DNA of 64,000 bases, from assembly GCA_944390345.1 (NCBI GenBank), contig CALXPP010000005.1:889-64888 (forward strand), in the 5' to 3' direction. The notes under the pieces were generated by a model. That model was not told where the DNA came from. It saw nothing but the letters and a program-made list of their open reading frames with translations, and did no database searches. Source of the stretch: an uncultured Clostridia bacterium. Lineage in GTDB: Bacteria > Bacillota > Clostridia > TANB77 > CAG-508. Numbering within the stretch: position 1 is the first letter of the stretch; each line of letters begins with the position of its first letter. The position numbers and the translations under genes are program-made. Below are positions 62,442 to 62,900 of this stretch, piece by piece.

Positions 62442-62900
62442 TTTGTACTTCCTCCTATGTTTTTTATATTTATTTTGGAGAAAAGAAAAACTCTTTTCTC
62501 CTTCAATCCATAAAACAAAAATACATAAGGATATCTTTGTTTCTTGAAAGAAAACCATTTCAAATTAAAATCAATAGTAAATAAAAAATATCAATTCAAG
62601 CAACACAAATAGCACTATATTTTATAGTGCTATTCTTCACTTTTTAATAAACTTTTACTTAAACTTCTTACTATCATCAGACTTCCTCTTTAATTTTTAT
62701 GGATTTCCTTAAGTCTTTGACTTAAGGAAGAATTAGAATTTTATTAAACCTTTAAAATTCAATGTTTTCGAGTTTTACTTATAAAATTTCTCATTTAAAA
62801 TTTTATTTTTGTATTGACTTGTAAACCTTCTAATGGTAGAATTTTATTAAATATTAAGTAGCCTTAAGTCAAAGACTTAAGGCTTTTTTTGTTTTGTAAA
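62442..62900 (-). repeat. Conserved roughly 440-bp 5' leader, copy B (paralog of 8262-8700)
   Basis: Hairpins at 62477-62501, 62608-62634, 62707-62727 and 62861-62883. A minus-strand uORF lies at 62630-62677. Long-range complementarity between ATCCATAAAA at 62505-62514 and TTTTATGGAT at 62696-62705. Confidence 0.65.
62814..62890 (+). promoter_or_regulatory. Consensus promoter TTGACT-17-TGgTAGAAT running directly into a terminator hairpin (same unit as 8610-8688)
   Basis: TTGACT at 62814-62819, TAGAAT at 62837-62842, then GCCTTAAGTC-aaa-GACTTAAGGC followed by TTTTTTT. Confidence 0.5.

Follow-up and report, generated by a model that had tools for sequence, protein, structure and literature searches.

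Short leader reading frames ending near a terminator-like hairpin behind predicted invertible promoters in an uncultured Clostridia bacterium

This work concerns two related loci, copies A and B, in a stretch of 64,000 nucleotides (nt) from an uncultured Clostridia bacterium (GenBank assembly GCA_944390345.1, contig CALXPP010000005.1, positions 889 to 64,888). We call the whole stretch the window and number it from its first letter. At each locus a gene for a protein with a prepilin-like N-terminus is preceded, on the minus strand, by a leader that holds a short open reading frame (ORF) and a hairpin, H3. The two leaders are 79% identical across ~500 nt. A first-pass annotation proposed that translation of the leader ORF decides whether transcription reads through H3 into the gene. 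It overlooked an invertible promoter upstream of each leader. We will present evidence that the ORF and H3 occur together as an optional module among related leaders, and we will weigh a tentative reading, in which a ribosome on the leader ORF would keep H3 from terminating transcription, against its rivals.

The two loci in the window

The gene at copy B (60675..62441, minus strand) encodes 588 amino acids with the prepilin-like N-terminus KGITLIALVISIIVMLILAG, and its product has 226 homologues. It had been called pilin-like. The shape of the N-terminus bears this out, but the Pfam N_methyl match scores 16.6 bits, below the cut-off of 21.2. The motif G-ITLIALV has Ala where Glu+5 is expected and does not match the class III signal peptide G|(F/I)TLxE, and NCBIfam gave no match for the protein. 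The gene at copy A starts at ATG 8253, and its frame (8125..8253, minus strand) breaks after 42 codons. The remainder is an ORF at 5454-8144 of 896 amino acids with C-terminal leucine-rich repeats. At the break (8125-8144, minus strand) the window reads GCAGTTATACGGAGATAATGG against ...ATAGGAGA... in the paralogues, one extra C, so either the gene is a pseudogene or the assembly is wrong here.

Upstream of each leader lies a pair of inverted repeats. At copy B the gene-proximal repeat, CCTTAAGT-CTTTG-ACTTAAGG (62707..62727), and the distal repeat (62862..62882) enclose a segment of 134 base pairs (bp) at 62728..62861 and are 100% complementary over 21 nt. At copy A the proximal repeat (core TTTAG, 8503..8523, perfect over the 19 nt 8503-8521) and the distal repeat (core CTAAA, 8658..8678, perfect part 8660-8678) are 100% complementary over 19 nt with a gap of 138 nt, and they enclose the segment 8524-8657. 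Each repeat is itself a palindrome of the form CCTTAAGT-N5-ACTTAAGG, with 8-bp arms around an asymmetric 5-nt core. The core is the same within a copy, where it is reverse-complemented between the two repeats, and different between copies (CAAAG in B, CTAAA in A). The pattern occurs four times in the window against 0.01 expected. This layout looks like that of lox/FRT-type sites in inverted orientation.

Both segments hold the same candidate promoter on the plus strand, TTGACT-N17(TG)-TAGAAT, at 62814..62842 (10/12 matches, with an extended -10 TG) and at 8610..8638, and the same TTGACT/TAGAAT element is found in many homologues. The distal repeat and the T-run that follows it on the plus strand (T7 at copy B) are predicted to form an intrinsic terminator, at -15.3 kcal/mol for copy B (62860-62894) and -18.9 kcal/mol for copy A. 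Since the promoter points away from the gene and into this terminator, we read both loci as being in the OFF orientation. An OFF-state transcript of ~45 nt is predicted, ending at the distal repeat and T-run (62849-62894 and 8645-8690, plus strand). It may be a by-product or a small RNA. That the two leaders stand in the context of an inverton seems to us nearly certain.

The leader ORF of copy B (62630..62677, minus strand) has 15 codons and a TAG: ATG ATA GTA AGA AGT TTA AGT AAA AGT TTA TTA AAA AGT GAA GAA TAG, encoding MIVRSLSKSLLKSEE. Its ATG (62677-62675) is preceded by AGAGGAAGTCTG, and the Shine-Dalgarno (SD) site AAGAGGAAG (62682..62689) places GAGG 7 nt 5' of the start. Its stop, TAG 62632-62630, lies within AATAGCACTA, the 5' arm of H3. 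The leader ORF of copy A (8418..8468, minus strand) has 16 codons and a TAA and encodes MTNLIIKKLNSYLDKH. Here the ATG (8468-8466) is preceded by AGGAGAAGTCT, the SD site AGGAGAAG (8472..8479) has GGAG 6 nt 5' of the start, and the stop, TAA 8420-8418, lies within AGCACTAATA, again the 5' arm of H3. Direct reading of the minus strand agrees on every point of sequence with the first-pass description of an SD-led ORF of 15-16 codons that stops inside this arm. It agrees also that the peptides share nothing beyond composition; they are unrelated sequences with the K/L/S/N bias of an AT-rich genome. The two copies alone say nothing about chance, because 15 codons is the length expected after any ATG at 27% GC.

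H3 at copy B (62607..62635, minus strand) is a hairpin of 12-13 bp with the loop AAA. Its arms, 62608-62619 and 62623-62634, are 12 nt long and 100% complementary across a 3-nt gap. It folds at -15.3 kcal/mol (z score -4.6) and is followed by a U-rich tail, the UUUGUGUUGCUUG region, at 62595..62606. H3 at copy A (8399..8425, minus strand) has 10 bp and a 7-nt loop, with perfectly complementary arms at 8399-8408 and 8416-8425 and a fold of -11.7 kcal/mol (z score -2.9), and the tail AUUUGUGUUGUUU (8385-8398) follows it directly. A consensus scan flagged both as terminator-like on the minus strand, counting four such sites per region where shuffles give 0.1. When H3 was searched for elsewhere, none was found outside these leaders.

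An optional module among homologous leaders

The homologous switches can be divided by the distance from the proximal repeat to the start codon. Most loci have short leaders of 15-80 nt, which leave no room for a leader ORF. Class 1 leaders (156-204 nt) have a conserved core only. Class 2 leaders (230-435 nt), which include both copies in the window, have this core and an insertion that falls exactly between ...GAAGU and UUUGAAAUGG. The insertion is a module of ~75-100 nt, made up of an SD, an ATG, a variable spacer of 39-47 nt, H3 and the tail AUUUGUGUU. We gathered class 2 leaders from a repeat scan, from protein-homologue look-ups and from a metagenome scan anchored on ATCCATAAAAA and AGTGCTATTTG, and found 18 copies, of which 16 are distinct. 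Four were retrieved with a pattern that requires neither SD nor ATG.

The start of the leader ORF goes with H3. An SD and an ATG are present in 18/18 leaders that have H3, and these leaders come from organisms whose repeats differ in type (TTAAGT or TTAATT cores). An alignment of 13 sequences has an invariant ATG column, and the start codon follows a true SD (AGAGGAAG, AGGAGAAG, GAGGGAG or AAGGAAA) at a distance of 6-9 nt. Where the module is missing, as in 14 related leaders, the position homologous to the SD holds a purine run of degenerate sequence (AATAGAAGT and similar) in 13 cases and GGAG in one. The ORF starts 39-47 nt before H3 and ends close to it. In all 16 distinct leaders the end of the stop codon falls between -13 and +21 nt relative to the first base of H3, the range including one leader (L127) whose stop is in the 3' arm. 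The ORF has anywhere between 8 and 19 codons, and its stop lies in the 5' arm at both copies in the window and in L141 but not in most homologues. The first-pass annotation had taken spacing, length and stop placement to be conserved. The spacing and the ending near H3 hold across the homologues, but the length and the stop within the arm do not.

On another view, H3 would simply terminate transcription, insulate the gene or protect the RNA from decay. It would hold back read-through transcription of the gene or reduce ON-state output constitutively, and the ORF would have no regulatory role, its purine-rich 'SD' being kept for some other reason such as pairing with a pyrimidine run in the leader. 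H3 is terminator-like, as this idea would have it, and the length of frame 0 is near chance at 27% GC. A separate candidate bidirectional terminator in L123, L126-L129 and L138 suggests that insulation matters in the family. However, true GGAG/GAGG at the right spacing and an invariant ATG occur only with H3. Frame 0 has no stop before codon 8 and none past H3, whereas about half of the sequences stop within 6 codons in frame +2. A constitutive terminator between the sole promoter and the gene would also waste expression. We consider this explanation quite unlikely.

The ORFs appear to be genuine, and the leader ORF is likely to be translated because SD and ATG are conserved. The peptide is another matter. 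Examples are MTKLYLVKE, MKIVCFSKLFNF, MIKICKNNNIKNK, MNLKKSKSKIKRF, MTNLDLEKINFNLSTNKIY and MKKVEEIKAK, and we found no conserved peptide among the variants; a loose MT(K/N)L start is common to some. Between L126 and L127 an indel shifts the frame. The copy B locus was also recovered from other samples (L006, L137, L144, L145), where the ORF has 10 codons, MIVKNLSKSL, and stops 13 nt before H3. The L006 protein is 98% identical to that of copy B. Of 11 differences between the window and L006 in the ~580 nt upstream of the gene, 7 fall inside the 48-nt ORF and one of these shifts the stop by 15 nt, and there are none in the 190 nt of leader 3' of the ORF. The body of the ORF is thus a hotspot of divergence (window 62630-62678, L006 348-395), and the spacer that contains it appears to evolve fast.

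These data bear on the idea that the leader ORF encodes a phase-variable small peptide, or an RNA product, with H3 as its terminator. Such a gene would have the signals seen here, from SD and ATG to stop and terminator-like hairpin, and the MT(K/N)L N-terminus recurs in several variants. Against it stand the small size (8-19 residues) with no conserved sequence, the frame-shifting indel and the premature stop in the other assemblies of the copy B locus. The only gene downstream would also be left without a promoter of its own, since scans of both copies for a promoter between H3 and the gene gave only weak, non-conserved matches. We think it very unlikely that the product of the ORF is what matters.

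The hairpin is better kept than the ORF body. Because MAFFT placed the 5' arm of H3 in two registers, we listed pairs for each sequence with RNAfold instead of counting pairs formally. Between 9 and 11 pairs are kept in 15/15 variants tested, and the core folds at -9 to -12.5 kcal/mol, or up to -17 with flanking pairs. Variants differ by G-U substitutions, a flip of A-U to U-A, a single change from G-U to G-C and one inserted pair. The loop varies freely in sequence (AAA or UUU) and in length (3-7 nt); it is reverse-complemented, AAA against UUU, between assemblies of the copy B locus. In the alignment the lower 3' arm and tail, UAGUGCUAUUUGUGUU, are nearly invariant, as is the tail motif ATTTGTGTT among module-bearing leaders. 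A near-invariant lower 3' arm and tail are as expected of a terminator.

The invariance of the 3' arm and tail goes beyond what a hairpin needs, and the module lies ~75 bp from the recombination site. These two facts could suggest that the module acts as DNA, with a transcription factor or an accessory protein of recombination bound at the H3 palindrome and the conserved bases around it, and with the ORF as a by-product. However, a loop of 3-7 nt between arms that vary from 9 to 11 bp fits an RNA hairpin and not a site bound by a dimer, and the module is missing from most switches of the same recombination system. We give this idea very little credence.

The leader core and the attenuator model

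The core of the long leaders, in which the module is inserted, has the order AAUCCAUAAAA ... UUUGAAAUGGUUUUCUUUCAAAG ... UUUUUAUGGAUU ... long hairpin ... SD, at 62477-62564 with 62695-62705 in copy B and 8291-8378 with 8485-8500 in copy A. Three helices can be drawn in it. The 3' strand of P1 in copy B, UUUUAUGGAUU (62505..62515, minus strand), pairs with 62695-62705 (AAUCCAUAAAA) and so encloses the ORF, H3 and P2. In an RNAalifold analysis of 24 leaders, 10 pairs of P1 are kept in 24/24, without covariation. The hairpin P2 has the form UUUGAAA-UGGUUUUC-UUUCAAA in the core at large and UUUGAAA-UGGUUUUC-UUUCAAG in copy B (62543..62564, minus strand). It is conserved, and it has compensatory changes on both sides in three sequences of the same set. 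P3 is a purine/pyrimidine hairpin just 5' of the SD of the gene. Rfam gave only tRNA for the whole window at gathering thresholds and only noise for the leader at E up to 10, and we regard the core as a candidate new cis-regulatory RNA that no Rfam family matches.

The predicted ON-state leader of copy B has a z score of -6.2. At minimum energy it folds so that the P2 region is base-paired to codons 3-8 of the gene (62546-62563 with 62418-62435; in copy A, 8361-8378 with 8229-8246). This pairing of 17-21 bp and -15 to -25 kcal/mol, reached by at most 0.3% of shuffles, is found in 9 related genes, those whose products start (K/R)K(L/S/Q)FQ, where it is kept through G-U changes. It is absent from MNKRKC-type paralogues. 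The helix, as modelled, may be a translational control that also constrains the N-terminus of the protein.

Three other candidates in this region were considered and set aside. A second invertible segment might have lain between AATCCATAAAA and TTTTATGGATT, but the enclosed region has the same orientation in all 24 leaders, so an RNA helix or a fixed element fits better. A degenerate recombinase half-site was suggested by GAAGTCnATGAC, which resembles AAGT-N5-AC in some leaders, but the register differs in copy B. A promoter match at 62544-62571 (plus strand), from which antisense transcription could run into H3, has no counterpart in copy A or in the homologues.

The core gives rise to a rival view, that the leader ORF acts on RNA folding, translation or stability and not on termination. 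Ribosomes on the ORF would delay or prevent P1, or shift the balance between P2 and the pairing of P2 with codons 3-8, and H3 would be a structural or stabilising insert. The constancy of P1, the compensatory changes in P2, the strongly folded ON-state leader of copy B and the P2 pairing with the coding start in the 9 related genes all favour this. So does the position of the module, exactly between the 5' strand of P1 and P2, with that strand ending ~5 nt before the SD of the leader ORF. However, leaders without the module keep both P1 and P2, so the ORF is not needed for either. P1 lacks covariation and could be an element that acts as DNA or binds a protein. This view also leaves unexplained why the ORF ends at H3 and why the U-rich tail is nearly invariant. 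We consider it unlikely.

The reading we prefer is a ribosome-dependent attenuator that works by occluding a terminator. The module would lie in the structured 5' leader of a phase-variable surface-protein gene whose promoter flips through site-specific recombination. In the OFF state the promoter would fire into the distal repeat and T-run terminator. After inversion to ON, transcription would begin ~12 nt 5' of the proximal repeat and proceed along the leader, in the order promoter, ~20 nt, repeat hairpin, AAUCCAUAAAAA, SD-ATG, ORF and H3. Intrinsic termination at H3 and its U-rich tail would be partial. A ribosome on the leader ORF would finish translation within 13 nt of H3 or inside it, and would block the formation of H3 while RNA polymerase is on the U-tract, allowing read-through into the gene. 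The peptide would be irrelevant; translation itself and the point where it ends would matter, and the position of the stop would set the level of read-through. Expression in the ON state would therefore depend on translation keeping pace with transcription. Because the promoter inverts upstream of the leader, any such attenuator would act in ON cells alone. The terminated RNA had been put at about 200 nt; from the ON-state promoter of copy B we predict ~140 nt instead.

A terminator-occlusion attenuator predicts the pattern seen here, in which the start signal, the lower stem and the U-rich tail are conserved, the peptide is free to vary and the stop falls at the hairpin. In E. coli the tR2 terminator is nearly fully repressed when the stop is a few bp upstream and intermediate at ~17-18 bp, and it regains full activity once the distance exceeds 30 bp (Li et al. 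2016, PMC4824070). The stops of all 16 distinct leaders lie within this interfering range. In the pil1 leader of Streptococcus gallolyticus, transcription can terminate when the stop lies 39 bp upstream of the hairpin and reads through when the stop falls within the hairpin or beyond it (Danne et al. 2014, PMC3894217).

Several points weigh against the attenuator. H3 is A-U rich, with only 3 G-C pairs in its stem, and of the 9 positions in the tail AUUUGUGUU only 6 are U and the G's are conserved, so termination may be weak. The stop 12-13 nt before H3 in L006, L137, L144, L145 and L128 is at the edge of the reach of a terminating ribosome. RNA polymerase often outruns the lead ribosome in Bacillota, which weakens simple occlusion. 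The module is absent from most members of the family, both the 14 related long leaders and most short leaders, and it appears to be optional and dispensable. When each spacer is shuffled, the first stop in frame lands within the observed range at p = 0.17-0.42 for the individual sequences, but the window for this comparison was chosen post hoc and the sequences are related to each other, so it is supportive and not a formal test. Finally, no alternative antiterminator, regulatory codons or conserved peptide were found in the leaders, so no specific signal can be named. Pairing of the 3' arm or tail of H3 with sequence upstream was sought, and the one candidate, ACAAATAG before the SD, is present in copy A only and is not conserved.

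We believe the idea of attenuation coupled to the leader ORF survives in outline. The SD and ATG are conserved, the ORF always occurs with H3 and the stop is in the range of interference, but the module is dispensable and the details differ from those first given. We infer terminator activity of H3, occlusion by the ribosome and any physiological signal from sequence, and we put the probability of a ribosome-dependent terminator-occlusion attenuator, active in ON cells alone, at roughly 45%. A more ambitious form of the idea is two-layer heritable control, in which inversion would set ON or OFF, the stop of a fast-evolving leader ORF would set the amplitude in ON cells, and the P1/P2/P3 core would possibly be a new class of RNA shared by more than 100 invertons. 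We regard this as speculative and doubtful.

The switch family and its relation to known systems

We scanned one genome per species for the pattern TTAAGT-N5-ACTTAA, a gap of 125-155 nt and a second TTAAGT-N5-ACTTAA. The scan yielded at least 117 stretches, with more than 110 such switches in genomes of uncultured gut Clostridia and Bacilli. Although the pattern left the cores free, they are exact reverse complements in ~112 of 122 repeat pairs among the matches listed, and the exceptions are mostly in unrelated phyla. The hosts are almost all uncultured gut Clostridia or Bacilli known from metagenome-assembled genomes, with up to ten or more switches per genome. In 79 cases among the matches listed, a gene starting ...GITLIALVxxIIxLLILAG adjoins one of the repeats. 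These appear to form a large new family of invertible promoters with lox-like palindromic repeats and locus-specific cores.

Inversion is observed at a homologous locus. L001 (OFF, 2303-2478) and L003 (ON, 52-227) come from different samples and have identical flanks and protein, and between them a 134-nt segment is an exact reverse complement. Their protein is a copy B homologue at 52% identity. One module-bearing leader, L142, was assembled ON, and other contigs break at the switch. Among the matches listed, the gene-linked switches with one promoter by the strict pattern are OFF in 36 cases and ON in 3. At the two loci of the window and at the orthologues L006, L137 and L145 only OFF was seen, and an exact look-up found no record of the copy B protein, so no ON-state assembly of the copy B locus was found.

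Tyrosine recombinase genes lie ~50-90 nt from switches of the same type in L080, L009 and L098 (Pfam Phage_integrase, E 1e-26 to 1e-30), which come from Eubacterium callanderi and two other lineages. Recombinase-like ORF fragments, found by tblastn only, lie beside the switches in L093 and L048. No tyrosine recombinase was found within the 64-kb window, so we assume an enzyme acting in trans.

Some members of the family depart from the simple plan. In L144 (~400-420) and L002 (~2455-2475), two independent loci, the invertible segment and one repeat are precisely deleted. One repeat remains, with one arm altered by a point mutation, and the locus is promoter-less and locked OFF. These deletions may have arisen because the palindromic arms double as direct repeats. 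In L038 (2309-2472) prepilin-like genes lie on both sides of the switch, with leaders of 15 and 76 nt, so that one inversion would toggle between two paralogues. The candidate bidirectional terminator of L123, L126-L129 and L138 is an extra strong hairpin flanked by A- and T-runs, inside the segment and adjoining the proximal repeat. In the OFF state it would shield the gene from read-through, and inversion to ON would carry it to the other end of the segment.

Two other features of the window may be recorded here. Beside copy B, at 63082-63934 (plus strand), is an Rpn/PDDEXK_2 transposase-like gene split by a frameshift at a T5 run (CGTATTTTTCGG). T4 in place of T5 would give the canonical ...KRIFGYVGNEH, and the T5 run is also present in the independent assembly L144. 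At 11172-15914 (minus strand) three tandem acetate kinase paralogues (399, 398 and 399 amino acids) lie next to a phosphotransacetylase-like gene.

How a gut bacterium escapes immunity and phages depends in part on its phase-variable surface proteins. What is known about invertible promoters in the gut comes mostly from Bacteroides, E. coli and C. difficile, and the lineage studied here is one of uncultured, very AT-rich Clostridia whose related genomes have ten or more switches each, all before one family of large proteins with prepilin-like N-termini. If the attenuator is real, a translation-dependent gate would stand behind a DNA switch, combining an all-or-none switch with a graded, tunable output. 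The repeat pattern and the leader motifs are ready probes for ON and OFF states and for leader alleles in metagenomic reads. A full-text search of the literature, incomplete in its coverage, found no description of this switch family or of an inverton combined with a leader-ORF attenuator.

Like the leader-peptide attenuators of trp, his, ermK and bmrCD, which sense amino acids or antibiotics, the module would place a short ORF upstream of a terminator in the 5' leader. Unlike them it has no runs of regulatory codons, no conserved stalling motif and no conserved antiterminator or anti-antiterminator, and the spacer, where an antiterminator would have to form, is less conserved than any other part of the leader. 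E. coli pyrBI is closer, since there simple occlusion at the terminator hairpin, as proposed here, needs no antiterminator helix. However, pyrBI senses UTP through pausing of the polymerase in a U-rich leader and no such signal can be identified here. The host also differs from E. coli in being of a low-GC Clostridia lineage, where coupling may be loose.

The pil1 locus of Streptococcus gallolyticus has an SD-led leader ORF before a stem-loop and a surface-appendage gene, as our loci appear to have (PMC3894217). In pil1, and by our proposal here too, the position of the stop relative to the hairpin decides between termination and read-through, the peptide is irrelevant and expression is heterogeneous across the population. 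The difference lies in the source of heterogeneity, which in pil1 is slippage of a GCAGA repeat within the leader ORF and here is a separate DNA inversion upstream. Direct reading of the 16 ORFs reveals no repeat tract and no homopolymer longer than the A7 of copy A, and stop positions differ between loci and strains without evidence of reversible switching. With neither the repeat tract of pil1 nor the codon runs or alternative helices of trp and his, the module is filed under neither type.

The switch itself resembles fimS of E. coli, the capsule promoters of Bacteroides and the RecV-dependent switches of C. difficile at cwpV, flgB and cmrRST in having a short promoter segment between inverted repeats. 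It resembles known invertible promoters also in lying upstream of genes for surface structures, in occurring many times per genome and in its association with tyrosine recombinases. It is unlike them in that its repeats are palindromic, with 8-bp arms around an asymmetric, locus-specific 5-nt core, and in that the distal repeat is predicted to double as the OFF-state terminator. Combining such a switch with a further control has precedents in C. difficile, where flgB and cmrRST combine it with a riboswitch and cwpV with an orientation-dependent terminator. Unlike in the riboswitch-linked switches, the leader element here is an ORF with a hairpin, and the cargo is a family of proteins with prepilin-like N-termini in uncultured gut Clostridia.

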